From Methanobacteriota archaeon (GTDB taxonomy: Archaea > Thermoplasmatota > Thermoplasmata > SG8-5 > JAGLSY01): 64,000 nt of DNA. This document shows, piece after piece, positions 1,755 through 48,128 of the stretch (positions are counted from its first letter, which is position 1; each line of letters opens with the position of its first letter). The DNA is taken from contig JAEHCQ010000005.1 in NCBI GenBank assembly GCA_020696385.1, forward strand, positions 27,336 to 91,335, read 5' to 3'. Made by a program: the position numbers and the translations under genes. A model generated the notes under the pieces. It was given only the letters and a program-made list of their open reading frames with translations, had not been told where the DNA came from and did not search any database.

Positions 1755-1892
1755 AACGTATTAGTTTTTCTAATCGCTAGTAAGATGTAGAATATTGGCG
1801 ATATTGGAACAAACGCTCAGGTCATAGATAACTGTGAACGCGTTAGTTCTTCTAATCGCTAGTAATATACAAAATATAGGCGATTAGAAAAA
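1755..1892. repeat. Two degenerate ~50-bp direct repeats (period 82 bp) containing an inverted repeat, in a divergent intergenic region
   Basis: aacg..ttagtt(t/c)ttctaatcgctagtaa at 1755 and 1837; TTCTAATCGC (1850-1859) / GCGATTAGAA (1880-1889). Confidence 0.8.
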
Positions 1893-1984
1893 TTCTGAGC
1901 AACATTGGATCAAACACTTTGTTGATAAGTTAAATATAATCATCAAGATGCACAAATATAATATCAAATAGGAGCTATGACAGG

Positions 1985-2632
1985 ATGATGAGACCAGAGA
2001 TCATTGTGAACTGCGCGATGTCGGCTGATGGCAAGATCGCAGGCAGGGAACGAAAACAGGTCAAGATATCCGACCAGGCAGACTTCAAAAGAGTGCATGA
2101 ATTGAGAAATGAATGCGATGCCATTCTCATTGGCATCGGTACAGTCATTGCGGATGATCCATCGCTCATTGTCAAGGAAAAATATGTAGATGATCCAAGC
2201 CAGCCCATTAGGATTGTCCTAGATCCTAATGGCAAATGCTCGGAAGGATCACTTGTACTGGATAATACGATCGTCACCCTCATCATCACCAATGAGCAAT
2301 GCCAGCGCGAGTTCCAGGGAACCAATACCAGAAAATTATCATTCGGCAAAGATAAGGGGATCGACTTGACCCGCATGCTGGAGCATCTCTACGGTATGGG
2401 CATCAAGAAGATACTTGTGGAAGGAGGCGGGGAGACCATCTGGCATTTCTTCAAGGCCAAATGTGTTGATAGACTAAGCATCTTCGTAGGAGATATCATA
2501 ATCGGGGGCAGAACATCACCGACGCCGGTGGACGGTGATGGATTTGGTCTCGAAGAGCATGTACAACTTGTTTTCAAGAATATGAAGAGAATGGAAACTG
2601 GTATTGTTGTTGAGTATGAAATAAACTACTAG
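1985..2632 (+). CDS. arfC: 2,5-diamino-6-ribosylamino-4(3H)-pyrimidinone 5'-phosphate reductase (RibD C-terminal/Rib7 type)
   Basis: AMSADGKI, DAILIGIGTVIADDPSL, P.RIVLD, ILVEGGG motifs; no deaminase domain. Confidence 0.9.
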   Translation: MMRPEIIVNCAMSADGKIAGRERKQVKISDQADFKRVHELRNECDAILIGIGTVIADDPSLIVKEKYVDDPSQPIRIVLDPNGKCSEGSLVLDNTIVTLIITNEQCQREFQGTNTRKLSFGKDKGIDLTRMLEHLYGMGIKKILVEGGGETIWHFFKAKCVDRLSIFVGDIIIGGRTSPTPVDGDGFGLEEHVQLVFKNMKRMETGIVVEYEINY

Positions 2633-2673
2633 ACAAAGATATCCAGATCATCTATATTTCTAAATATTATAAC

Positions 2674-3639
2674 TTAAAAAGCATCCTTGCTGGAATAATA
2701 TTCCTCGCTGACAACCTTGCCAGTTGCCGCATTTATTATCATCACGCCATTGGTTCCTTCCACACACCAGACCGGCACGCTGATCACACCCTTGAGAGAT
2801 AGTGTGACATCTTCCTCCTTTGGCTTGAACTCGGTTCTTTCAGTCACGATTGTGTGTTCCTTTTCTATTATGACGTCATCGAATTCCGTGTTCAACTCGA
2901 TGACCTTGGACATGGCCATCGCGGACGCCTCGTGCTCATCGATCTTGGGCTCGATGCGAATATGCGGGATATCAAGACTATCGATGATATCCGGGACATC
3001 ATCGCACTTTGTCGCGATGCCAGTATAAGCATTGATAAGAAGTAGACCAGTGTATTTTCTCTCTGCATTTTCTTTACCTCTGAAAATGCAGAGATATTCG
3101 AAAATGAAATGAGGAATTAATTCCAATTCATACTTGAAGCCCTTCACGGTCTTCTGGGATATCTCTTTCACATCATCCAGTTGAATTATCGGTGACTGGA
3201 TGGCCTCTGTATCCCCGGCGCCGATGCTTTCGATGGTGATCGAGATCTTATCATCGAAGTCCTTGCCTTCAATGATCTCCGCCCTCACCATCTCCGTGAA
3301 CTGCAGGATCGTGGATCCTCCGTGATCATTCACATGGTCGAAGATGATCCCGCCAATCTCCCTCTCGATATCCTCGGAATCCCACAGTGTGATGCCATTC
3401 TCCTCGGCATATTCATATATACTGGGGAGTGGCTTTTTCATTGACGCGATTATCTTGGATGAGGTCGTGCCTCCCAGCTTTGACTTGAAGTCCTCGATGT
3501 AACCAATACTGCACTCATTGACAAAACCCAATGATATCAGCTGATCGCCCTTTTCTCCAGAGAGAACATCATCTTTCTCGGAGACTTCGAAACCATAGTT
3601 CTGTAATAGATGGATTAGGATTCCTTTTAGACTTACCAA
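2674..3639 (-). CDS. Conserved hypothetical protein; possible degenerate Mrr/PD-(D/E)xK-like N-terminus and PepSY-like C-terminus
   Basis: 321-aa ORF; GITLWDSEDI and VWCVEGTNGVMIINAATGKVV resemble those folds only weakly. Confidence 0.5.
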   Translation of the reverse strand: MVSLKGILIHLLQNYGFEVSEKDDVLSGEKGDQLISLGFVNECSIGYIEDFKSKLGGTTSSKIIASMKKPLPSIYEYAEENGITLWDSEDIEREIGGIIFDHVNDHGGSTILQFTEMVRAEIIEGKDFDDKISITIESIGAGDTEAIQSPIIQLDDVKEISQKTVKGFKYELELIPHFIFEYLCIFRGKENAERKYTGLLLINAYTGIATKCDDVPDIIDSLDIPHIRIEPKIDEHEASAMAMSKVIELNTEFDDVIIEKEHTIVTERTEFKPKEEDVTLSLKGVISVPVWCVEGTNGVMIINAATGKVVSEEYYSSKDAF

Positions 3640-3785
3640 GCTGATCCCTCAGTGCCAAGCTAGAGTCAAGCACTTAATTTTGATACCATTGAAATCGCAC
3701 TTGACTTTATAGTTGCACACCAGAATGATGAACATATTGTTAATCATAAGTACAAATTCTTAAGTGCGCAACTACAATCGAACAA

Positions 3786-4778
3786 ATGTATTTTAAGTTT
3801 TGTAGTGTATCCGAGGTTGTGAAGATCAGATTATCCATTGGAACAGCCATAACCCTGGGCCTTATACGAGGAAAGCAAAATGTCGACCCCACCACTACGT
3901 ACATCATGTTGGGTGATGGTTGCACTAACAATTGCTCTTTCTGCACCCAGGCTACCGAGAATGATTCGTCAAAGGATCATCTGTCGCGGGTGATGTGGCC
4001 GGAGTTCGAATGGGAAGATGTCATCGGCAAGCTGGCAGTATCAGATTCAATGAAACGAGCATGCTTTCAAACACTAACATATGATGGGATGGTGGATGAT
4101 CTACTGCAATTGGTGAAGGAATTGAAGAAGATCAATATCCCGACATCTGCGGCGGTAAAACCAATGGATGATGATGACCTTGCCAGACTCAATGATGCGG
4201 GATTGGGCAGGATCGGAATATCCATTGATGGCGCCAGCCATTCCGTGTTCGAGAATGTGAAAGGATCTTTAGTTGGTAATCCATATTCATGGGAAGAACA
4301 TCTGCGATCCCTCGAAAAGGCAAGCCAGGTATTCAAGGGGAGGACCAGCACGCATATCATTGTCGGGCTGGGAGAGACCGATGAGGACATCATGAATATT
4401 CTTGACTGGTGCAATAACCGGAATATCACTGTGGGGCTTTTTGCCTACACATCATTTCCTGGCGTGAGATGTGACGGAGAACCACCAAACCTGGATAGAT
4501 ACAGGACTATCCAGGGTCTTAGATATCTCATGCAGAATGGACATATTCAACCATCTGATACAACAATATCCGATGGTCGACTGATAAAACTGGGTAATAG
4601 CTCGAGCATACGATACAAAATAGAACCAGAGGCTTTTGAGACCTCTGGTTGTAAGGACTGCAACAGACCCTATTACAATGAAAGGGTCAGGGGGCCAGCC
4701 TATAATTATCCAAGGTCTTTGACAGATGACGAGCATACAGAATCTATAAATCTTATCAAGAGATATTTGAGAGAGTGA
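3786..4778 (+). CDS. lipS2: Radical SAM protein, LipS2-type lipoyl synthase subunit (start may be the GTG slightly downstream)
   Basis: CTNNCSFC radical SAM motif; C-terminal TSGCKDCNRP resembles the LipS2 signature; adjacent to lipoate ligase genes. Confidence 0.72.
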   Translation: MYFKFCSVSEVVKIRLSIGTAITLGLIRGKQNVDPTTTYIMLGDGCTNNCSFCTQATENDSSKDHLSRVMWPEFEWEDVIGKLAVSDSMKRACFQTLTYDGMVDDLLQLVKELKKINIPTSAAVKPMDDDDLARLNDAGLGRIGISIDGASHSVFENVKGSLVGNPYSWEEHLRSLEKASQVFKGRTSTHIIVGLGETDEDIMNILDWCNNRNITVGLFAYTSFPGVRCDGEPPNLDRYRTIQGLRYLMQNGHIQPSDTTISDGRLIKLGNSSSIRYKIEPEAFETSGCKDCNRPYYNERVRGPAYNYPRSLTDDEHTESINLIKRYLRE

Positions 4779-4793
4779 AACTGGAGCGATAAT

Positions 4794-5561
4794 ATGGCTG
4801 AGAAGTGGAGATTATTATTGACTGGCGATATGGACGCGGCCTCGAACATGGCACTTGATGAGGCCGTGCTCCGGCTGAACAAGGATAAGCATGAGGGGAC
4901 GGTACGCTTCTATTCCTGGAAGCCAAAGGCGATATCCATAGGATATTTCCAGGGAATTCAGGAAGAAACAGATATCGAAAAGTGCAATGCCAGTGGAGTG
5001 GATGTTGTGCGAAGGATAACTGGCGGCGGAGCCGTATACCACGATGATGAGCTCACCTATAGCATCATCGTGAATGAGAAGCATCCCAAGATATCCAACA
5101 ATATCCTGGAATCCTATGGCCACATCTGCAATGGCATAGTTCTCGGCCTGGAAAAACTGGGCATAAGCTCAGAGTTCAAGCCCATCAACGACATAATCAC
5201 GAATGGCAGGAAGATATCCGGAAATGCCCAGACCCGCCGTCTTGGAAATGTACTCCAGCATGGCACAATATTGCGAACAGTGGATGTCAGGACGATGTTC
5301 GACCTGCTCCTTGTCCCGGATGAGAAAATAAGGGACAAGATGATCTCCGCTGTCGAGGAAAGAGTAACATCTATATCAGACATATTAGGTGAACGACTAG
5401 AAAATGATGTAATCCAAAATGCCATGATCGAAGGGTTCTCCGAGGCTCTTGGTGTAGAATTTGATAAGAATTCTTGGTTACCCACATCGGATGAATATGT
5501 TCTTATGGATAAGATTAGGAGAGAAAAATATGGAAATCGTAAATGGAACTTCAAAAGATAA
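4794..5561 (+). CDS. lplA: Lipoate-protein ligase, catalytic domain
   Basis: NMALDEA, VVRRITGGGAVYHD, KPINDI..NGRKISGNAQ, LQHGT. Confidence 0.92.
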   Translation: MAEKWRLLLTGDMDAASNMALDEAVLRLNKDKHEGTVRFYSWKPKAISIGYFQGIQEETDIEKCNASGVDVVRRITGGGAVYHDDELTYSIIVNEKHPKISNNILESYGHICNGIVLGLEKLGISSEFKPINDIITNGRKISGNAQTRRLGNVLQHGTILRTVDVRTMFDLLLVPDEKIRDKMISAVEERVTSISDILGERLENDVIQNAMIEGFSEALGVEFDKNSWLPTSDEYVLMDKIRREKYGNRKWNFKR

Positions 5562-30515: not shown

Positions 30516-31304
30516 TTGGAAAGCGTGACATTCGCATTATTACTGACCACCATAGCGGGTCTATCCACTGGATTGGGCGGAGCAGTCGTACTGCTACAGA
30601 AAAAGCCCAATAAAACCCTCCTCACCTTTTCCCTGGGGCTTTCAGCCGGGGTCATGGTATATGTTTCTTTCATGGAGCTTTTACCCGATGCGATCGAGGG
30701 CATTGGAGAGGTTGCTGGCATACTGGCCTTCTTCGTCGGAGTTATGTTCATAGCTCTGATCGATGCCCTTCTACCGAAACAGCTGAATCCTCATCATTTC
30801 AGCAGGATCACTGGCAGAAAATGTGAAAAGAAAAAGAAGAGAAGTGAAGCAGAATGCCGCCTAATGAGGGTGGGCACCTTCACAGCAATTGCCATAACGA
30901 TCCATAATTTCCCAGAGGGAATAGCGACCTTTAGCGCGAGCCTGACGGACATCAGACTTGGGATGGTCATTGCCATCGCGATAGCCTTACATAATATTCC
31001 AGAGGGCATCTCGGTAGCCGCCCCCATATTCGCAGCCACAGGTGATAAGATCAAGGCCTTCAAGTACGCCTTTCTATCTGGAATAGCAGAGCCCATTGGT
31101 GGTATATTCAGTTTTATCGTGCTCTACAATTTCATGTCTGATTCCCTTTTGGCAGGATTACTGGCCTTTGTGGCTGGAATAATGATCTACATATCTCTTG
31201 ATGAGATATTACCCACAGCCCATAGCTATGGCAAGAGCCATGTTGTGCTGGCAGGTGTTATGCTGGGTATGTTCATAATGGCAATGAGCTTACTTATGTT
31301 GTGA
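30516..31304 (+). CDS. zupT: ZIP family zinc transporter
   Basis: AITIHNFPEG, IALHNIPEGISVAAP, SLDEILP. Confidence 0.95.
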   Translation: MESVTFALLLTTIAGLSTGLGGAVVLLQKKPNKTLLTFSLGLSAGVMVYVSFMELLPDAIEGIGEVAGILAFFVGVMFIALIDALLPKQLNPHHFSRITGRKCEKKKKRSEAECRLMRVGTFTAIAITIHNFPEGIATFSASLTDIRLGMVIAIAIALHNIPEGISVAAPIFAATGDKIKAFKYAFLSGIAEPIGGIFSFIVLYNFMSDSLLAGLLAFVAGIMIYISLDEILPTAHSYGKSHVVLAGVMLGMFIMAMSLLML

Positions 31305-39078: not shown

Positions 39079-40920
39079 TCACTCGATTCTCATCATGACA
39101 TCGCCAGTTTTGACCATGTCACCTTCATTGGCGTAGATCTCTTTGACCTCACCATCGAAGTCCGATTCGATATTAGATTCCATTTTCATGACCTCGAGGA
39201 TAGCGACAACATCGCCCTTCTTGACCTTGTCACCGACCTTGACGGTCAGCTTCCAGAGATTTCCCTGGCATCCAGTCTTCTGCATTCCGATTGCATTTGG
39301 ATCAGGTCCGCCTGTTGCACATGGTGCTCCAGCGGCTCCACCAGCAGATGTGACGTAACCGCCTGTTGGCTCAACCTTTACCTCAAAGAAGTCTCCGTCA
39401 ACCTCGACATTGAACTCGGTTGGGATAGGTGCTGGTCCTGCGACAGTTCTTGCCTCTGGTGGTTCGGTCTCAAGGTAAACAGCTGGCAATTCGGGGAAGA
39501 AGGACTTCACCATGGCTCTGGTAGCATCATGATCCTTGTTGAGTGGAAGCTGGTCTGATGTGAATTCTGGTATAGCCTCACCCTTCAGGAATTTGAGCCC
39601 AACTTCAGGGAACAAAGTGTATGTCATTATGTTCTCGTCGGTCATATCGATACTTGGAGCAAGCTCTGCCAGTTCTTTCTTTCTGATATCCCACATGTCC
39701 TTTGCCACAAGGTCTGCCGGCCTGCAATCGATTACCTGATCTTTCCAATCAGGTCCGAGAACCAATTCCATGATCTCTGGTTTTATTGGTGCTGGTGATT
39801 TGCCATACATACCCTTACAGTAATCGATTGTCTCCTTGGGTATTTTCTTATATCTTCCGAAAAGAACGTTCATAACAGACTGGACTCCAACAACCTGACT
39901 CGTTGGTGTAACAAGTGGTGGGTATCCCATTTCCTCACGTACGCGGGCTGTTTCATCAAGAACATCATAATATTTGTCAGTCGCACCCTGCATTTCCAGC
40001 TGGCTGACCAGATTGGAAAGCATTCCACCTGGTATCTGATGTACCATAACGGATGGATCGACCTTCATAGCTTCCTGGCGTATCAGATGTCTGTATTTGT
40101 GCCAGATCTCCATGAAATATTTTCTGATCTCGATAAGCTGGTGCATATCGTATCCGGTGTCATATTTTGTGCCTTTAAGTGCAGCCACAACACTCTCTGT
40201 TGGAACTCCACCTGTCCCGCCAGATATAGGTGACATGGACGTGTCGAGCACATCGACGCCTGCCTCACAGGCTGCCCAATATGCCATACCAGTCATTCCA
40301 CTGGTGTAATGGCTGTGCAGATCGATAGGAGCTTTTGCTCCAGAATCCTTGTAACCCTTGATTATATCATATGCAACCTGTGGAGCTATCATTCCAGCCA
40401 TGTCCTTTATACAAACACTCTGGCAACCCCATTTGTCAAGCTGAATAAGATCTTGAACATACCTCTCCACAGTGTGAACCGGAGAGATCGTGTAGCTGAC
40501 ACATCCCTGTGCGTGACCTCCGACCTCCAATGTGGCCTCTATCGGGGTCTTCATGTTCCTAAGATCGTTCAGAGCATCGAATATACGGAAATAATCACAT
40601 CCATTCTTCTTTGCCAATCCGATGAACTTATGAACTACCTCATCAGGGAAATTCCAATATGCCACGATATTCATGGCTCTCTCAAGCATCTGTAGTTTTG
40701 TATTTGGCATGGCCTCTCGGAGAGCTCTCAAGCGCTCCCAGGGATCCTCATTAAGGAACCTTATCGGAACATCATATGTTGCTCCGCCCCATACTTCCAT
40801 GGACCAGAATCCTATCTCATCCATTTTCTGTGCTATTGGAAGCATGTCTTCCGTTCTCATTCTCGTTGCCAAAATAGATTGGTGCGCATCCCTCAGTGTC
40901 TGATCGTGTAGTTGTACCAT
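39079..40920 (-). CDS. pycB: Pyruvate carboxylase subunit B (carboxyltransferase plus biotin carrier)
   Basis: LRDAHQS, WGGATYD, IKDMAG, HSH, HQIPGGMLSN, LVTPTSQ, EVMKM. Confidence 0.93.
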   Translation of the reverse strand: MVQLHDQTLRDAHQSILATRMRTEDMLPIAQKMDEIGFWSMEVWGGATYDVPIRFLNEDPWERLRALREAMPNTKLQMLERAMNIVAYWNFPDEVVHKFIGLAKKNGCDYFRIFDALNDLRNMKTPIEATLEVGGHAQGCVSYTISPVHTVERYVQDLIQLDKWGCQSVCIKDMAGMIAPQVAYDIIKGYKDSGAKAPIDLHSHYTSGMTGMAYWAACEAGVDVLDTSMSPISGGTGGVPTESVVAALKGTKYDTGYDMHQLIEIRKYFMEIWHKYRHLIRQEAMKVDPSVMVHQIPGGMLSNLVSQLEMQGATDKYYDVLDETARVREEMGYPPLVTPTSQVVGVQSVMNVLFGRYKKIPKETIDYCKGMYGKSPAPIKPEIMELVLGPDWKDQVIDCRPADLVAKDMWDIRKKELAELAPSIDMTDENIMTYTLFPEVGLKFLKGEAIPEFTSDQLPLNKDHDATRAMVKSFFPELPAVYLETEPPEARTVAGPAPIPTEFNVEVDGDFFEVKVEPTGGYVTSAGGAAGAPCATGGPDPNAIGMQKTGCQGNLWKLTVKVGDKVKKGDVVAILEVMKMESNIESDFDGEVKEIYANEGDMVKTGDVMMRIE

Positions 40921-41101
40921 ATTACATACCTTCAGGTCTATTGTAAGTCCCCTATGGGGACCTTTCTGAACAGGGGCGTATCCATCATTGTATGTTTAAG
41001 CTTTTCTGTAATTATAATTATATATATGTGTGTAAAAATTATATGCATTTATTTATCGCACCTATGAAAAAGAATATAATACATTAACTTATTACAGAGG
41101 A

Positions 41102-41560
41102 TTGGTGGTAAGTATCTCATCAGAGGAGGAGAATGCAATTTTATCGGAGAAGATAGAGGCAGATGACGATCAGTCATTATGCCCCATGTGCGGAGCAGAT
41201 CTATCGATAGATGCGATAGAATGTCCGGAATGTGGTGAACCATTTTCCCCAGAGGCTTTCCATAAAGACCCAGAAGCGGAAAAGAAAAAGAAGACCAATA
41301 AGAAAATGTTCATAACGGGCGTTATCTTGGTCCTGATAGGCGGCCCAGGGGTATCTTTTGGTTCATGGTTGCATGATCTATTGCAGATCCCATTCCCATC
41401 AGGATACGATGCCTGGACTACCTTTGGATGGGTCAATAAAACAGTTGCCACTGTCGGAATTGTTATATTAGTGATTGGTATTATACTGCTGATATTATCC
41501 ATATCCAGGGAGAGGCCTGAGGATTTCGTAGAGGATCAAGAGCTCTACGGAGGAAACTAG
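41102..41560 (+). CDS. Zinc-ribbon membrane protein (paralog 1)
   Basis: CPMC..CPEC plus a two-TM module. Confidence 0.8.
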   Translation: MVVSISSEEENAILSEKIEADDDQSLCPMCGADLSIDAIECPECGEPFSPEAFHKDPEAEKKKKTNKKMFITGVILVLIGGPGVSFGSWLHDLLQIPFPSGYDAWTTFGWVNKTVATVGIVILVIGIILLILSISRERPEDFVEDQELYGGN

Positions 41561-41596
41561 GGAGAGGTTATTATTCCAGAAGACGAGACGAGTGAA

Positions 41597-43021
41597 ATGG
41601 AATATGCATGTCCAGTGTGCGGTGCAGGTGTTAGCGGAGACGCTACAGAATGTGCTAGCTGTGGTGAGAGTTTTGCCACAAATGGTTACACAGACGAGAT
41701 TGTCGCAAATGGCAATATCGGTGACGATACCACAGATGGCATTGACACGGACAGCATTGAGGGAGCAAGCGAGGAAGACTCTATGGCAGAGATATCTGCC
41801 ATAGATGATGAGTTGGCTGAGCTTGAAGATGATTCTGAATTTTCAGAAGAGGTCACTGTAGAGGAGACCTCCGAGTTAGAGATCCTTCCTGCAGATGATA
41901 TTGATGACCCAGATGAACTCTCCGTGGGCGACCAGGATGATCTTGAGATCCCGGAAGATGATGAGATAGCCCCTGACGACCTGGGTGAGTTACCTGTAGA
42001 CTATCTAGATAAGAATACCTGCGAGGGATGTGGAGCATCATTGGGTTCGGATGATGTCGCCTGTGAGAAATGTGGAGATGCAGTTGGTGAAGTTGCAGAA
42101 GGTGATGTATGTCCCAGCTGTGGCAGCAAGGACTACACACTCCAGAAGGGTGATCTAGTATCCTGCGATAATTGTGGTAATGTTTATATTCATGAGAACA
42201 AAATAGATGGCCCAGACAATAGCTGGAAATGGAAGTTCTGGGGAGGACTTATTCTCATTCTGGTCGGGGACTTTGGATTTGCCCTGGCATCATATTTGCA
42301 TAATGCTCTCAGATGGTCACCATTGGGTGACATGTATCTGGGATACGGATGGATGGACTCCATGCTCGGAGGATTAGGTGTGGTCATATTCATAGTAGGA
42401 CTTGTATTATTTGCCTGGTCCTTCAAAAGGGACAGAGAGGTCGATTGCCCAAGTTGTGGCGTCCACATAAAAGAGAGTGATCTTCTCCCAATACCAGACG
42501 AGGATGAGATCGAGCCAGAGGACGAGATTAAACTATCAGATGTGATGGGCGAGATAGAGGATGTCGCGGAATGCCCACAGTGTGGAGCACCTTCCACGAT
42601 ATTTGATATCGAATGCAGTGATTGTGGAGCTTTATTCGACACTGAAGAATTCGATGAGGATATAATCGAAGATGAATTCATGGAAGATGAGTTCACAGAT
42701 GACGTAATTTCTGAAACTATAATAGAAGAAGAAGTTGTAGAAGAAGAAATTGCAGAGATCGAGGAATTAACAGAAGAGCAGATGATAATTGACAGCCTGG
42801 AGCTCAAAGATGATTCCGCTCTGGAACCGGAAACGGAAATTCCACTCAATGGGAAAAGCCAAGAGGTCCTTGAGGAAATGGAATCCGAGCTTGAATTAGA
42901 TGAAGATGGACTTGACCTTGGCGAGGACTCAGGATATGAATGTCCTGAATGCAGTTCCGTAATTGACAAAGGCGCGAAAGAGTGTCCAGTATGTGGTAAT
43001 TCAATGGCAGGAGGTGAATGA
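41597..43021 (+). CDS. Acidic multi-zinc-ribbon membrane protein (paralog 2)
   Basis: Five 4-Cys ribbons plus one lone CxxC, D/E-rich linkers, two-TM module. Confidence 0.85.
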   Translation: MEYACPVCGAGVSGDATECASCGESFATNGYTDEIVANGNIGDDTTDGIDTDSIEGASEEDSMAEISAIDDELAELEDDSEFSEEVTVEETSELEILPADDIDDPDELSVGDQDDLEIPEDDEIAPDDLGELPVDYLDKNTCEGCGASLGSDDVACEKCGDAVGEVAEGDVCPSCGSKDYTLQKGDLVSCDNCGNVYIHENKIDGPDNSWKWKFWGGLILILVGDFGFALASYLHNALRWSPLGDMYLGYGWMDSMLGGLGVVIFIVGLVLFAWSFKRDREVDCPSCGVHIKESDLLPIPDEDEIEPEDEIKLSDVMGEIEDVAECPQCGAPSTIFDIECSDCGALFDTEEFDEDIIEDEFMEDEFTDDVISETIIEEEVVEEEIAEIEELTEEQMIIDSLELKDDSALEPETEIPLNGKSQEVLEEMESELELDEDGLDLGEDSGYECPECSSVIDKGAKECPVCGNSMAGGE

Positions 43022-46000
43022 TCATGGCTGGAGAAATGGAATCAAAGACATGCCCAGCATGTGGAGCCTTTGTTGACCAACACGACTCATCATGTTCAAT
43101 TTGTGGTGCTGCAATAGAGGAAGTATTTGATGCACCAGATGCTATTATAGAGCCAATACAGGATGAGATAGAATGCCCATCTTGCGGTGCTCATATAGCT
43201 GCTGGTTCAGAGAACTGTCCCATATGCGGAGATGACATTGACATAGTGATAGAAGAGGTCAAGGTAGAGGATGAGCCAGAGGAAGTTCATAATGAATGTC
43301 CTGAGTGTGGGGCATTGCAGGAAAATGGCTCGGACGAGTGTTTCCTATGCGGCGCAGAGATCCCAACAGTTCCTGTCGAGATCGATGAACCTATAGAGGA
43401 AGAAACTCCAGATACGGAAGCTCCTGGAGAGTCTCCGGAACTGGATGTACCAGAAGAAGCAGAGCCTGCCGAGGCGGAGATACTGGAAGACGTGCCGGAA
43501 GAAGCACCACAGGAAGAACACAATGAGTGTCCAGAGTGTGGAGCATTGCAGGAAAATGGTTCCGATGAATGCTTCCTGTGTGGTGCAGCCATTATCAAAA
43601 CAGTTTCAATTTCAACAGAAGAAACAATAGAAGTTACTACAGAAGCAGAAATAGCTCCTGAAGAAGAGCTATTGGAAGAGGGTATCCCAGAGGAAGAGCC
43701 AGAAATAGAAATCGAAGAGGAAGCTCCTGTGGATATCGAGGAAACTGTAGAACCTGAGCCAGTAGAGGCAAAGATGGAAGAACCAGTTGAGGAAGAAGTT
43801 ATGGAAACCGAGACCATAACAGAACCCACAGAGGAAGTTCATATTGAATGCCACGACTGCGGAGCTTCACTTGATACAGATGCGAAAGATTGTTTCCTAT
43901 GCGGCACAGTGGTTATCGCGGACGGAGGAGACGCTCTGGTTGAAGAAGCAGAGCCAGACATCATTGAGGAAGAGACCTTGGAAGAAGTTGAGACCATAGA
44001 GGAAGTCATTACAATTGAAGAGGAAACAATTGAAGAGGTCTTCATAGAATCAAATGACGACCTTCCACCGCTCGAGGCAGCCCCACCAGAGGATATCAGC
44101 GAGGAGGTCGAAGAGGTTGTGGACGATATCATCGAAGAAGAGGTTTCACAGCTTGCAGAGGATGAGATGCACTGTCCATCATGTTCAAGTATTATCAAAA
44201 AGGACAATGAGAAATGTACAGAATGTTGGACCGATCTCTCATTGTATATCAATTGCGGATCATGTGATTGCCCACTGCCAGTGGATTCCGAAACATGTCC
44301 AAATTGTTTCGCAGTGATCGAGCTTATCATCGAAGAGGAAGTTGTGGATGAATATACCCTGGAGCCCATGGAAGAAGTGGATGCTCTCATGGACATTGAC
44401 CTGGATGAGACCGAGGTCACAGCCGAACTGGAACAAGAGATGTCTATTCTGGACCAGGAAGATGAGGATGACAAAGAATGTCTTGTCTGTGGAGCTCATT
44501 TCGGCCCGGATGATGATGAGTATTGCCCGATATGTGGTGTCGAGTATGGTATTGAGATAGCCGAGGAGATAGAACCCGAGAAGGAATGGGATGGACTCGA
44601 AGCACTTGTGCAGCCAACAGCATATATCTGCCCAAGTTGTGGCGAGAAGGTCATTGGTCTTGATCGAACACCAAGAAAGGTAGAGGAAGAGACCTGGTTC
44701 TACAGAGGGATCATTACCATATTCATTGGAATATTCGCTACTTCATTTTCAGTATGGCTAAGAGGAATTGCCATGGAAAGCCAGGCGACTGGCGTAAGAG
44801 CGCCGCCTTTTGATATTGTCGCAGGCCTTGCGGGATGGGTATTGGTGCTTATCGGATTCACCTTCTGGTTCATATCATACAGGATCGGCCAGGAGCTCAT
44901 AGAATGCCCACAATGCAGTATCGAGGTCACACAGGATATGACCAACTGTATAAACTGCAACCTCACTCTGATCGAGCCTGAGGAAGGAGAGGATATCGAG
45001 CAGGAAGAAGAGAGAGAAGAATCCCTGCCAGAAGATGCTGACATGGAGGCCTTCACGGAACAGATCCTTGCAGATGAGGAATTCGAGGAAGAGATCATTG
45101 AGGAAGTGGAGCCAGAGCCAGCTATAGAGTTCACAGAAGAAGATGATCTTGACGTCATAGAGGATGAACTTGGACTCGACCTTCCCGAGGAATTGGGCGA
45201 TGAGCCTGAACTCGAAGAACCTGAAGATCTGGAGATCCCTGAAGAGGTAGAGCCTGAAATGGAAATTGAAGAAGAACCATTGATGGAAGAAGCTACACTT
45301 GATGAGGACATTCCAATTGAAGAGCCTTTGGCAGAAGAGCCAGAGATCACGATAGATGAACCGCTTACAGAGGATGATCTGTCTGCTTCTTTCGAGGTAG
45401 ATGAGCCAATTGAGGCTGAGCCTGAAATGGAAATTGAAGATGAAGCTCCACTTGAAGCAGAAATTGCAGATATCGAGGAAGTTGTAGAACCAGAGCCAGT
45501 GGAGGCAGATATAGAAGAACCTGCCGAAGCCGAAGTTCTGGAAGCTGAGCCAGCCATCATGGAGGAACCTATCGAGACAGAGTCCATCATGGAGGACACA
45601 ACAGAAGTTGAAGAGCACATCGAATGTGCAAGTTGTGGCGCATCCCTTGAAACTGGTTCAACAGACTGCTTCCTTTGTGGAGAGATCGTAGTTGCTGCAG
45701 CTCCAGAAACTGATGAATTACCTATCGAAGCAGATACTGACATCCCTGATGTGGATGACGATATGGGTGCAGAGCTTCCAACCGAGCATGAGGATCACAA
45801 GAAATGCCCAGGATGTGGAATATTCGTAGATCTGGATGCGGCAGAGTGTCCAGTATGTGACACACTATTCGATGAGGCTGATGTTCCACAGGAGAACGGC
45901 ATTGAGGTTCCAGTCATCGAGGCAGAGCCCGATATGAGCATTGAGGAATCCGCCGTTGTAGAGGCAGAGGAAGAAGAGCATATCGAGTGCTCGGAATGTG

Positions 46001-46185
46001 GGGCAAGTGTTGAATCAGATTCCACAGAATGCTTCCTATGTGGTGCCGAGCTTGCAGCTGTAGATGCAGAGGGACTTTCAGACATATCTGATGATGGAGA
46101 AGAGAAGAAAGAATGCCCCGCTTGCGGAGCAATAGTCGGATCCTCAGATATCATATGCCCAATATGCGATGAAGCTCTTGTGTGA
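43018..46185 (+). CDS. Giant hyperacidic poly-zinc-ribbon membrane protein (paralog 3)
   Basis: Thirteen 4-Cys ribbons plus one lone CxxC by manual count, E/D/P-rich linkers, two-TM module; ATGA overlap with the previous gene. Confidence 0.88.
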   Translation: MIMAGEMESKTCPACGAFVDQHDSSCSICGAAIEEVFDAPDAIIEPIQDEIECPSCGAHIAAGSENCPICGDDIDIVIEEVKVEDEPEEVHNECPECGALQENGSDECFLCGAEIPTVPVEIDEPIEEETPDTEAPGESPELDVPEEAEPAEAEILEDVPEEAPQEEHNECPECGALQENGSDECFLCGAAIIKTVSISTEETIEVTTEAEIAPEEELLEEGIPEEEPEIEIEEEAPVDIEETVEPEPVEAKMEEPVEEEVMETETITEPTEEVHIECHDCGASLDTDAKDCFLCGTVVIADGGDALVEEAEPDIIEEETLEEVETIEEVITIEEETIEEVFIESNDDLPPLEAAPPEDISEEVEEVVDDIIEEEVSQLAEDEMHCPSCSSIIKKDNEKCTECWTDLSLYINCGSCDCPLPVDSETCPNCFAVIELIIEEEVVDEYTLEPMEEVDALMDIDLDETEVTAELEQEMSILDQEDEDDKECLVCGAHFGPDDDEYCPICGVEYGIEIAEEIEPEKEWDGLEALVQPTAYICPSCGEKVIGLDRTPRKVEEETWFYRGIITIFIGIFATSFSVWLRGIAMESQATGVRAPPFDIVAGLAGWVLVLIGFTFWFISYRIGQELIECPQCSIEVTQDMTNCINCNLTLIEPEEGEDIEQEEEREESLPEDADMEAFTEQILADEEFEEEIIEEVEPEPAIEFTEEDDLDVIEDELGLDLPEELGDEPELEEPEDLEIPEEVEPEMEIEEEPLMEEATLDEDIPIEEPLAEEPEITIDEPLTEDDLSASFEVDEPIEAEPEMEIEDEAPLEAEIADIEEVVEPEPVEADIEEPAEAEVLEAEPAIMEEPIETESIMEDTTEVEEHIECASCGASLETGSTDCFLCGEIVVAAAPETDELPIEADTDIPDVDDDMGAELPTEHEDHKKCPGCGIFVDLDAAECPVCDTLFDEADVPQENGIEVPVIEAEPDMSIEESAVVEAEEEEHIECSECGASVESDSTECFLCGAELAAVDAEGLSDISDDGEEKKECPACGAIVGSSDIICPICDEALV

Positions 46186-46314
46186 ACTACCAGGCCATAA
46201 AAGACAGGAAGTTCCCATTCAAAGCCATTAGGCCAGCAAACTCATATCACAGCCCAGGATCACTCTGGTAAATTGAACATATCTTTTTATACCACCAGTT
46301 CTACGTCCGAACTG

Positions 46315-47142
46315 ATGGACACCCTATTGTTCCTGGTATCGGTTATAGGATTCTCTCCAGCTCTTGGAGTGGTATGGTATAGCCTCAGGAAGTACGACCA
46401 TCCTTATGTGAAAGGAACATGCTTCGATGATAGGCGAGTGTTCTTTCTTTTAGCCATTGGCATGGTGGCTGGTACCATCCTTCTCATGATGGAAAGGCTG
46501 GTTTACCCGCTCTTCAAGGTCCCGATGGACGACGGAACCGTATATTTCAGCCCCCTCTGGTTCGTCGTGTTCTATGTTGTCGCACTGGGGCTTGTGCACA
46601 CACTGACAAAATATGTGATACTGAACTTCCCCTCCATTCAGGGCAGGATAGATTCTCAGTTCTACGGTGTGTCACTTGGAGCCGGGATATCCGCAACCTG
46701 GATAGTTGGTTTCAGTTATATCCAGCTCACCGTGCAGGGTGGATCCAATGATATCGCGATCCTCACCTCACTGATATTGCTATCCTTGAACACAGCATTG
46801 ATACATGCGTCGGTTGGCGCAGTTCTCGGTGTAAGCACTGCGAATAATGAGGGGATGAGAGGCATCATAGGCGGCCTTGTTCCGCATTTGATATTCGGTA
46901 TGATGATGTTGCCATGGTTCTATTACGATGTCATCTGGTATACTCTTCTATTGGCAACACCCATCACCATCGTCATCTACAGAGAAGTTTATCTGAACAT
47001 AATTCCCAAGTCATTGCCTGAAGAGATCCAGCATGAGATCATGGAGAATAAGGCAAAGGCATTGAAAGCAAAAGAAGCTAAAGCAGAGGCAAAAGTAGAG
47101 ACTGAAGCTGAAGCTGAAACAGAATTGGAAGAAACAGAATAG
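46315..47142 (+). CDS. Multi-TM protein, PrsW-like
   Basis: About seven TMs; N-terminal P.....W......D..., G..LGAG, HA..G and H motifs; EExxK degenerate. Confidence 0.55.
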   Translation: MDTLLFLVSVIGFSPALGVVWYSLRKYDHPYVKGTCFDDRRVFFLLAIGMVAGTILLMMERLVYPLFKVPMDDGTVYFSPLWFVVFYVVALGLVHTLTKYVILNFPSIQGRIDSQFYGVSLGAGISATWIVGFSYIQLTVQGGSNDIAILTSLILLSLNTALIHASVGAVLGVSTANNEGMRGIIGGLVPHLIFGMMMLPWFYYDVIWYTLLLATPITIVIYREVYLNIIPKSLPEEIQHEIMENKAKALKAKEAKAEAKVETEAEAETELEETE

Positions 47143-47198
47143 TCTGGATGTCCTGGATCAAGATTTTTCTGTATCAAGATATTGGGTTTTAGAAATTA

Positions 47199-48128
47199 TC
47201 AGTGAGAGATATACATCCCGCAATTGCTCTTGATCTGATTTTCCTCAACTTCTCCAATGCTTAGCAATACCTCGAAACCCAGTGCTTCGAATTCATCGAT
47301 CAGCCTTTTCAAATTATGCTGATGTTCATGACCCTCCTCATCGATCAGACTTTCCAGCAGATTGGCCTTGGAATTGTTAGTTGGGTTGATAGGTGTCAGT
47401 TTGATCAGGAATTTGTCTGTTGGGAACATGTCCGCGATCTTATGGGGGCTGACGGGATATCCCTGAGCCATCGCAAAGTTAAGTGTCACTTTGCGGTCAC
47501 CCTCTTTGCAGAACCTCTGGCCAAATTCAGATATCTGCTCCAGGCTCATTTTATTGATTGGCATGAGCTCATCACGCTTTTCATCATCGGTCGTGTGGAT
47601 GGAGAATTGCATCTGAAACTTGCCATCGGGATAAAGCTCGTCCTTGATCTCCAATAGCTCTTCGAAGAAGGGCCAGGCTCCTGCTGGAGCCACAGTCGAT
47701 ATGCACGGCAGAAGCCCGGGAGCATCCAGATGTTCCGGCAGCATTCTGAGAGTCTGAAGCACATTCGGATTGAGGGCGGGCTCGCCCATTCTGGCAAATT
47801 GGATCTTGAACTTTGGGACAGGTACTTTGCCATCCGGAAATCGCGTTCTTATCAGATAATCGATCTGAGCCAGCATTTCCTCGGCTTCCAGTTTACCACT
47901 GTAATTACCACCCGCATCGCACATCCTACACCTCACCGGGCATCCGAATAGCGAGGAGATGATTATCACCCACTTCTCCTCCCTCGGGACAGGAGGCTGG
48001 ATGGATTCTGCGAATTCAACAAGATAGGGATCTTTCACATTTGAGCCAGCGGTATCTTCTTCCTCTCGGAATCTCGCGACATACACCTTGGCCAGTCCCT
48101 CATTGCCGTGCTCGGATATTATTTTCAT
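47199..48128 (-). CDS. RlmN/Cfr-like radical SAM protein, atypical
   Basis: SSLFGCPVRCRMC, ARMGEP, SIHT, LMPIN, C-terminal NCG. Confidence 0.85.
   Translation of the reverse strand: MKIISEHGNEGLAKVYVARFREEEDTAGSNVKDPYLVEFAESIQPPVPREEKWVIIISSLFGCPVRCRMCDAGGNYSGKLEAEEMLAQIDYLIRTRFPDGKVPVPKFKIQFARMGEPALNPNVLQTLRMLPEHLDAPGLLPCISTVAPAGAWPFFEELLEIKDELYPDGKFQMQFSIHTTDDEKRDELMPINKMSLEQISEFGQRFCKEGDRKVTLNFAMAQGYPVSPHKIADMFPTDKFLIKLTPINPTNNSKANLLESLIDEEGHEHQHNLKRLIDEFEALGFEVLLSIGEVEENQIKSNCGMYISH

Follow-up and report, generated by a model that had tools for sequence, protein, structure and literature searches.

Archaeal genomes are rich in small zinc-ribbon modules, of which hardly any has a known role; CdpC, as the anchor of FtsZ1, became the first clear case only in 2026. 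CdpC (HVO_0399) of Haloferax volcanii possesses a zinc-ribbon membrane anchor, a disordered linker of 243 amino acids (aa) and a C4 ribbon that binds FtsZ1, and remote multi-ribbon relatives of it have been reported in all Thermoplasmatota classes (bioRxiv 10.64898/2026.07.16.738847). PRC-barrel proteins (CdpB) also serve as archaeal division factors, and Cdc48 together with a PRC-barrel gene is a recognised neighbourhood (10.1101/2023.03.28.534520). A second point of comparison is the zinc site shared between proteins, of which few have been well studied, namely the Rad50 hook and the Lck clasp. In the CD4/CD8-Lck zinc clasp, one zinc is held by CxxC motifs of two chains. The Rad50 zinc hook forms a very stable lock from one zinc and two CxxC motifs of two chains (PMC5093744, PMC9569753). 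Here, we analysed three adjacent genes, termed A, B and C (the triad), in a window of 64,000 nucleotides (nt) from an uncultured sediment archaeon of the class Thermoplasmata (GenBank assembly GCA_020696385.1, contig JAEHCQ010000005.1, positions 27,336 to 91,335). The explanation that we favour, and to which we give about an even chance, is that their products assemble into a hetero-oligomeric scaffold at the membrane, with a split zinc ribbon as its lock.

The triad appears most like CdpC in its overall design and most like a zinc hook or clasp at the junction between subunits. Likened by design and not by sequence, CdpC would be its closest functional analogue. Both have a long disordered linker between anchor and ribbon (in the triad, an AlphaFold2 predicted local distance difference test score, pLDDT, below 50). 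However, CdpC is anchored by an N-terminal C3H ribbon with a membrane-binding amphipathic helix, whereas the triad proteins have a two-helix transmembrane (TM) hairpin, lying in the middle of B and C and in the C-terminal half of A. There are also three proteins here, with 1, 5 and 13 ribbons and a split half-site. Since it has no amphipathic-helix C3H N-terminal domain, the triad falls outside the CdpC family as defined. The Rad50 hook, in turn, sits at a coiled-coil apex of identical chains, whereas the CxxC knuckles of the triad are predicted in membrane-adjacent beta-hairpins on different subunits. The triad is not a Rad50-type hook, since it lacks a coiled coil and would pair chains that are not identical. 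We describe the following as new: 1) an order-wide three-subunit system; 2) a hairpin module not described before; and 3) a computationally supported split zinc site.

Coupled genes conserved across one order

The three open reading frames (ORFs) lie on the same strand, with a gap of 36 nt between A and B and an overlap of the B stop with the C start (ATGA). Recounting gave 152, 474 and 1055 aa with 1, 5 and 13 four-cysteine (Cys4) ribbons, the same as in an initial annotation of the window. A has 2 CxxC motifs, which make up its ribbon, B has 11 (5 ribbons and the lone C284-P-S-C287) and C has 27 (13 ribbons and the lone C538-P-S-C541). C4 ribbons are found at the C-termini of both B (residues 449-466) and C (1033-1050).

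Of 21 relatives belonging to the same order, 16 have a B gene that we could find and 17 a C gene. The genomes without B and/or C are 61-83% complete, and in all seven same-order genomes that are at least 90% complete, B and C are on one contig and one strand. The junction between B and C varies among orthologues from an overlap of about 11 nt to a gap of 4 nt. These results show that A, B and C make up a tightly coupled operon that has been conserved across one Thermoplasmata order, and the A-B-C triad is a feature of this one order of uncultured archaea.

Complementary half-sites and a fused relative

Besides complete ribbons, B and C each possess one unpaired CxxC. The initial annotation had placed these motifs after the TM helices of B and before those of C, and they are found there, at C284/C287 and C538/C541. 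The arrangement is complementary: B has the order complete ribbon, hairpin, half-site, and C the order half-site, hairpin, complete ribbon. For B, the motif reads FKR[DE]REV-x-CPSC; 15/15 orthologues and 56/56 database homologues have it, and the nearest other CxxC downstream of it is always 38-44 residues off. For C, the motif reads CP[SNH]C and lies about 22 residues ahead of WF[YR]; 14/14 locus-derived orthologues have it, as do five database hits, two sets that partly overlap. Both are invariant alignment columns in proteins whose mean identity to the window protein is 30-50%. Loss of the lone motifs in orthologues had been named beforehand as an outcome that would speak against the initial annotation; we saw the opposite, with both motifs invariant in all B and C proteins read.

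In AlphaFold2 models of B and of the C core, built with orthologue alignments, the lone CxxC of B is in a beta-hairpin 5-8 residues past TM2, and that of C in a beta-hairpin about 10 residues before a helix running into TM1. These modelled positions next to TM helices suggest that both half-sites would be near the inner membrane face.

Two genomes of one genus, G430 and G437, which belong to a different family of the same class, encode an acidic poly-ribbon protein of about 1055 aa that contains both knuckles. Its order is B-type hairpin, KRKYRH-C(S/E)FC, 25 residues, CP(K/N)C, about 20 residues, C-type hairpin, a short third hairpin and a complete ribbon. Its first half shows a match to the tmB hairpin hidden Markov model (HMM; E 2e-12), and BLASTP against B (E 5e-15) aligns KRKYRH-CSFC to KRDREVD-CPSC, the lone knuckle of B. 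The second half matches the C-family HMM, a model that begins at the lone CxxC and stops where TM2 ends, over its whole length (positions 4-95; E 2e-8 and 2e-9), and its comparison with the C profile by hhalign (probability 94.5%, E 8e-8) sets the second knuckle on the lone CxxC of C. Both genomes have a separate A-like gene, and a separate B gene was not found in them.

A CxxC-x25-CxxC unit between two hairpins of one chain, split elsewhere over the coupled B and C genes, supports an association of B with C and a Cys4 site shared by them. Judged by sequence, the fused and split forms stand in a Rosetta-stone relation that supports physical B-C association, and the two knuckles of the fusion would bind one zinc ion. 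They would do so in cis, unlike those of the two identical chains of Rad50. Evidence of this sort, from a natural split-versus-fused pair, is rare for zinc locks that join different proteins. Joining of B and C through a shared Zn site, as proposed in the initial annotation, is thus supported by the invariant half-sites, the overlapping or abutting genes and the fused relative.

In the third hairpin of the fusion (residues ~496-546), helix 1 carries an A/B-type LF.GG..G..GS motif, although the match is not significant. With this extra hairpin, one fused chain may hold three hairpins, equal to the hairpin number of A, B and C together.

Could each lone CxxC pair with that of a second copy of its own protein (B-B and C-C), giving Rad50-like hooks and no bridge from B to C? 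Two CxxC motifs of identical chains suffice for a Cys4 site, as in Rad50 (PMC5093744, PMC9569753), and conservation of the lone motifs fits homodimeric and heteromeric sites alike. However, the fusion sets B-type and C-type knuckles side by side in one chain, B and C always occur together and are coupled in translation, and AlphaFold2 predicts no coiled coil around either knuckle. We consider homodimeric hooks improbable on these grounds.

Membrane hairpins and predicted topology

Each of A, B and C has two TM-like hydrophobic helices, and pLDDT values of 85-93 were obtained for the B helices and the C hairpin. Profile comparison leaves no doubt that the hairpins of A and B are homologous (hhalign probability 99.1%, E 1e-18). 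TM-only profiles of C against A or B reached a probability of 3-4%, and comparison with a broader A/B family profile raised it to 50% (E 1.7e-4, colinear over 62 columns), compared with E 0.01 over 12 columns for a reversed control. The C hairpin, having the same layout and a colinear motif, is probably related to that of A and B. One two-TM module had been proposed for all three proteins; this holds for A and B, and only as probable for C.

Searching with the A/B hairpin profile recovered only 128 representatives among 1.84 billion proteins. Many of these have N-terminal zinc ribbons, and many longer ones have acidic linkers too. A SAP domain occurs in 8 of 103 family members scanned, some N-termini (P0062, P0066, P0070, P0080, P0102) are extremely rich in lysine and arginine (K/R), and in P0036 a MazG_C domain is fused to the family hairpin, indicating that this anchor has been joined to very different cytoplasmic parts. 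Membership of the module in a characterised family was the other outcome named beforehand as speaking against the initial annotation; the hairpin has no Pfam or NCBIfam match above threshold, and a profile search found none among PDB sequences.

Matches of the triad proteins to AmaP, DUF3185 and YcjF-type models were all under threshold. AmaP (NCBIfam NF033218), the membrane anchor of Asp23 in Firmicutes and a membrane anchor protein by its NCBIfam name too, was matched in register over its N-terminal region (~6-73 of 166) by 24 of 49 A/B hairpins. The best score was 25.5 bits against a cut-off of 55, and the remainder of AmaP is absent. This likeness may reflect hydrophobic composition; with all scores under the cut-off, the triad is not a member of AmaP. 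When full-length A was scanned against the whole phylum, matches to ribbons alone swamped the result and little was learned from it. A weak hairpin match at C11:386375-387319, beside a divergent tubulin gene, was taken to be spurious, as only hydrophobic stretches of a multi-pass membrane protein were involved.

No N-terminal hydrophobic signal is present in the A, B and C sequences. There are 7 K/R among the 15 residues before TM1 of A, and 0-1 in the inter-helix loops of the triad hairpins. With K/R on the hairpin flanks and no signal peptide, both ends of each triad protein, and hence all ribbons, would be cytoplasmic. AlphaFold2 modelled the ribbons of B and the C core as small beta-hairpins, and linkers had pLDDT below 50 (29-138, 303-315 and 351-391 in B, and those of the C core). 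The membrane-anchored cytoplasmic scaffold of the initial annotation fits with the missing signal peptide, the K/R flanking the hairpin and the linkers predicted to be disordered.

A Foldseek search of the C core against PDB gave no match with E below 0.5. The best local matches to the modelled ribbons were RanBP2-type arrays (Nup153, Nup358), with target-normalised TM-scores of 0.6-0.74 over 24-34 residues. RanBP2-type zinc fingers are small Cys4 ribbons arrayed in tandem with flexible linkers between them, and every ribbon binds one copy of a GTPase, Ran-GDP. They belong, however, to eukaryotic nuclear-pore proteins without membrane hairpins, and the likeness, with Foldseek E never below 0.5, is generic to zinc ribbons.

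The family also bears on what the ribbons might hold. They could tether DNA, RNA or basic chromatin proteins to the membrane, with acidic spacers that might mimic DNA. The SAP domains and K/R-rich N-termini of hairpin relatives are in line with such a role, and some zinc ribbons bind nucleic acid, an example being the ZRANB2 type found among the structural matches. A, B and C themselves have no SAP domain or basic region, however; at net charges of -0.25 to -0.30 per residue they would repel nucleic acid, and no DNA-related genes are conserved near the triad. A chromosome or nucleic-acid tether thus seems no better than a minor possibility.

Zinc ribbons and acidic spacers

Pfam recognises the ribbons as DZR (PF12773), Zn_ribbon_3 (PF13248) and Zn_Ribbon_1 (PF13240), for which the gathering cut-offs are about 27 bits. 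B (Zn_ribbon_3 49.2 bits, DZR 44.7 bits) and C (DZR 119 bits, Zn_ribbon_3 100.8 bits) are above cut-off. A, at 24.4 bits, is just under it, and its CPMC-x10-CPEC motif is present nonetheless. Individually, the triad ribbons are ordinary members of Pfam zinc-ribbon families. These models, to which no function is assigned, cover only a module of 25-45 aa, and the hairpin, the operon and the half-sites of the triad fall outside them. No other Pfam, NCBIfam or PADLOC model was above cut-off for A, B or C; the PADLOC anti-phage models gave no match for the membrane protein encoded downstream either, and Rfam none within 40000-47500.

Internal duplication with synonymous divergence, noted in the initial annotation, was seen again, in three copies of 91 nt in C. 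Between ribbon-unit copies 1 and 2, 12 of 69 nt are changed; all changes are synonymous and the 23 residues are identical. This purely synonymous divergence indicates, at the level of sequence, that the ribbon units are under purifying selection as folded modules.

Are the lone motifs, then, ribbons in decay? The half-sites could be vestiges kept for local folding, redox-active pairs or iron-sulfur ligands. The complementary positions of full and half ribbons in B and C are the pattern expected from decay of a common ancestor, and CP(S/H/N)C resembles redox motifs. However, both cysteines of both motifs are invariant in proteins with no more than 30-45% identity, the motifs follow the CPxCG knuckle consensus in predicted beta-hairpins with no thioredoxin fold, and the fusion retains both knuckles. 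Vestigial or redox half-sites are accordingly very unlikely.

The linkers had been described as very rich in glutamate and aspartate (D+E). D+E content is 16% in A, 29% in B and 33% in C, and in acidity B comes 6th and C 2nd among 1661 proxy ORFs of the genome (median 14%), placing them among its most acidic proteins. The acidity of B and C is thus specific to these proteins and not proteome-wide. Eight of the 15 most acidic proteins of the genome bear CxxC ribbons, and giant membrane proteins with 4-10 zinc ribbons are also encoded at C11:189592-196449, C44:45910-49485, C44:40530-45926 and C33:192345-198146. Combining acidic spacers with ribbons is therefore usual in this lineage and not peculiar to the triad.

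Orthologues of C vary in length from 584 to 2102 aa and in D+E content from 14 to 34%, and always have 9-17 ribbons. Those with 14-15% D+E still hold 11-14 ribbons, which does not support a polyanionic character as the essential property: extreme acidity is a lineage-specific trait of the spacers, not the functional core. The design that is conserved, a membrane hairpin complex bearing many ribbons whose spacers vary in length, suggests a platform for multivalent docking.

Gene neighbourhood and the zinc transporter

Cdc48 and a PRC-barrel gene directly precede the operon in 8 of 14 triad loci. In the six loci with annotated flanks, the order is UbiD-AcnX-Cdc48-PRC upstream and methylmalonyl-CoA mutase downstream. 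At L009, L011, L013 and five more triad loci, genes for UbiD-like and LpdD-like proteins and the large and small subunits of AcnX are conserved upstream of Cdc48-PRC, a run that we take to resemble the archaeal modified mevalonate-pathway cluster.

Of the three proteins, the A type is the most widely distributed, with 53 genome loci. At many of these, in genomes from soil and groundwater, A stands alone in an unrelated gene context. At A-only loci L034-L036, L043 and L048-L078, a soluble four-ribbon protein of ~215 aa is conserved about 1.2 kb upstream; it may act as a ribbon partner in trans in A-only lineages. A small protein that is TRAM-like by eye and a methionyl-tRNA-synthetase-like gene are found near A-only loci as well.

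The initial annotation had also pointed to a ZupT gene about 10 kb away and to a metal buffer. A ZIP transporter gene is indeed present upstream of the triad, but a functional link does not follow, as ZIP is not syntenic at other triad loci: there is no zinc transporter at the six triad loci with annotated flanking genes, and no cluster of genes conserved beside the triad matches the ZIP gene of the window. A store of Zn2+ or other cations, in which the Cys4 sites and carboxylates of 19-20 predicted zinc sites and ~500 acidic residues over the three proteins would act together with the transporter, is a very improbable alternative, since a carboxypeptidase gene, birA and pycAB separate ZIP from the triad in the window, the ribbons are selected as folded modules with Cys4 as structural sites, and orthologues of low acidity keep their ribbons. 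Metal buffering by the triad is unlikely.

Proposed scaffold and its partners

In the hetero-oligomeric scaffold that we favour, A, B and C would be subunits of one membrane-anchored complex whose hairpins pack together in the membrane. The half-knuckle after TM2 of B and that before TM1 of C would bind one zinc ion, and this split zinc ribbon would lock B to C. We infer the packing of the hairpins and the single zinc shared by B and C with support from the comparisons above. By analogy, the 19 ribbons would be beads on flexible spacers, providing a multivalent docking platform beneath the membrane for a cytoplasmic partner. Our preferred guess for this partner, again by analogy with CdpC, would be a cytoskeletal or division component (FtsZ paralogues, or PRC-barrel/Cdc48).

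The source genome has five genes of the tubulin/FtsZ family and SepF. Its three FtsZ genes are at C22:234263, C22:228314 and C11:181583, and SepF is at C47:122124. Together with the Cdc48-PRC neighbours and the CdpC analogy, these are consistent with a cytoskeleton or division role, toward which they point weakly. It is a tentative and rather doubtful idea that the triad is an archaeal membrane-cytoskeleton tether, in which a zinc ribbon split over two chains staples the subunits and up to 17 ribbons capture many copies of FtsZ-family or PRC-barrel/Cdc48-associated proteins. If true, uncultured Thermoplasmata would have in this tether a counterpart of haloarchaeal CdpC that is multivalent and spans the membrane.

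Several observations weigh against the scaffold or the proposed partner. Of 251 genomes sampled from the class, only 2 were found to encode the fusion, both of one genus, and BLASTP can instead stretch the second knuckle of the fusion onto the C326 ribbon of B with a 13-aa gap. The half-sites could serve B-B and C-C homodimers instead. For an assembly of three hairpins, the homology of the C hairpin to that of A and B is only moderate (the probability of 50% given above). As to the partner, the Cdc48/PRC-barrel pair of the source genome is on contig C11, with Cdc48 at 500961-503303, the PRC-barrel gene at 503348-503590 and no triad, and Cdc48-PRC is a neighbourhood known independently (10.1101/2023.03.28.534520). 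Hairpin relatives with SAP domains and K/R-rich tails point to nucleic acid, not cytoskeleton.

With three subunits, an order-wide range, a hairpin absent from databases and a half-knuckle prediction that is easily mutated, the triad offers a system for study. The identity of the ribbon ligand would show how uncultured archaea organise the layer beneath the cell membrane.

Elsewhere in the source genome, at C11:378894-386352, a divergent tubulin/FtsZ-family gene (330 aa, PF00091 34 bits) is followed by genes for two ~1050-aa proteins on the same strand, which have TPR-like repeats by eye, acidic disordered stretches and 1-2 zinc ribbons. This region is a possible second link between ribbons and cytoskeleton.

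Features of the locus

The features of the triad and of related loci are collected in Table 1.

Table 1. Coordinates of the triad and related features (positions of the window unless a contig is named)
Feature	Position	Strand	Description
Gene A	41102..41560	+	152 aa, TTG start; ribbon, GEPFSPEAF, basic stretch, two-TM hairpin, short acidic tail
A Cys4 ribbon	41180..41233	+	CPMC-x10-CPEC; 4/4 Cys invariant across 13 aligned homologues
A TM hairpin	41303..41518	+	residues 68-139; invariant GGPG..GS.LHD and FGW.N..G
Gene B	41597..43021	+	474 aa; 5 ribbons, disordered acidic linkers, hairpin homologous to that of A
B ribbon before hairpin	42110..42175	+	conserved; CPSC-x14-CDNC-GNVY
B TM hairpin	42212..42424	+	AlphaFold2 helices 206-240 and 248-276, pLDDT 85-93
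B lone zinc knuckle (C284-P-S-C287)	42446..42457	+	5-8 residues past TM2
Gene C	43018..46185	+	1055 aa; 13 ribbons, 33% D+E
C ribbon-unit copies (n=3)	43267-43357, 43498-43588, 43819-43909	+	91 nt each
C lone zinc knuckle (C538-P-S-C541)	44629..44640	+	~22 residues ahead of TM1
C juxtamembrane helix and TM hairpin	44671..44892	+	residues 552-625
C complete ribbon	44905..44958	+	conserved, immediately past TM2; CPQC-x10-CINC
Likely promoter	40921..41101	+	181-nt AT-rich intergenic region, 30% GC, between divergent pycB and A
ZIP transporter gene	30516-31301		~10 kb upstream of triad
Fused B-C type protein	L080 (G430:C38) 1778-4945	minus	also L081 (G437:C51)

Downstream of the triad, positions 46273-47142 encode a multi-pass membrane protein of 289 aa with a weak YhfC-type metalloprotease match under cut-off. 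Apart from the window, only the nearest relative (L028) has it beside the triad, and a functional tie between the two is therefore not supported.

The start of gene A is ambiguous. A GAGGA motif lies just 5' of the gene, and the TTG at 41102 directly follows it, whereas a start at the GTG at 41105 gives 151 aa. The latter start is implied by a 92% identical A orthologue (P0001).

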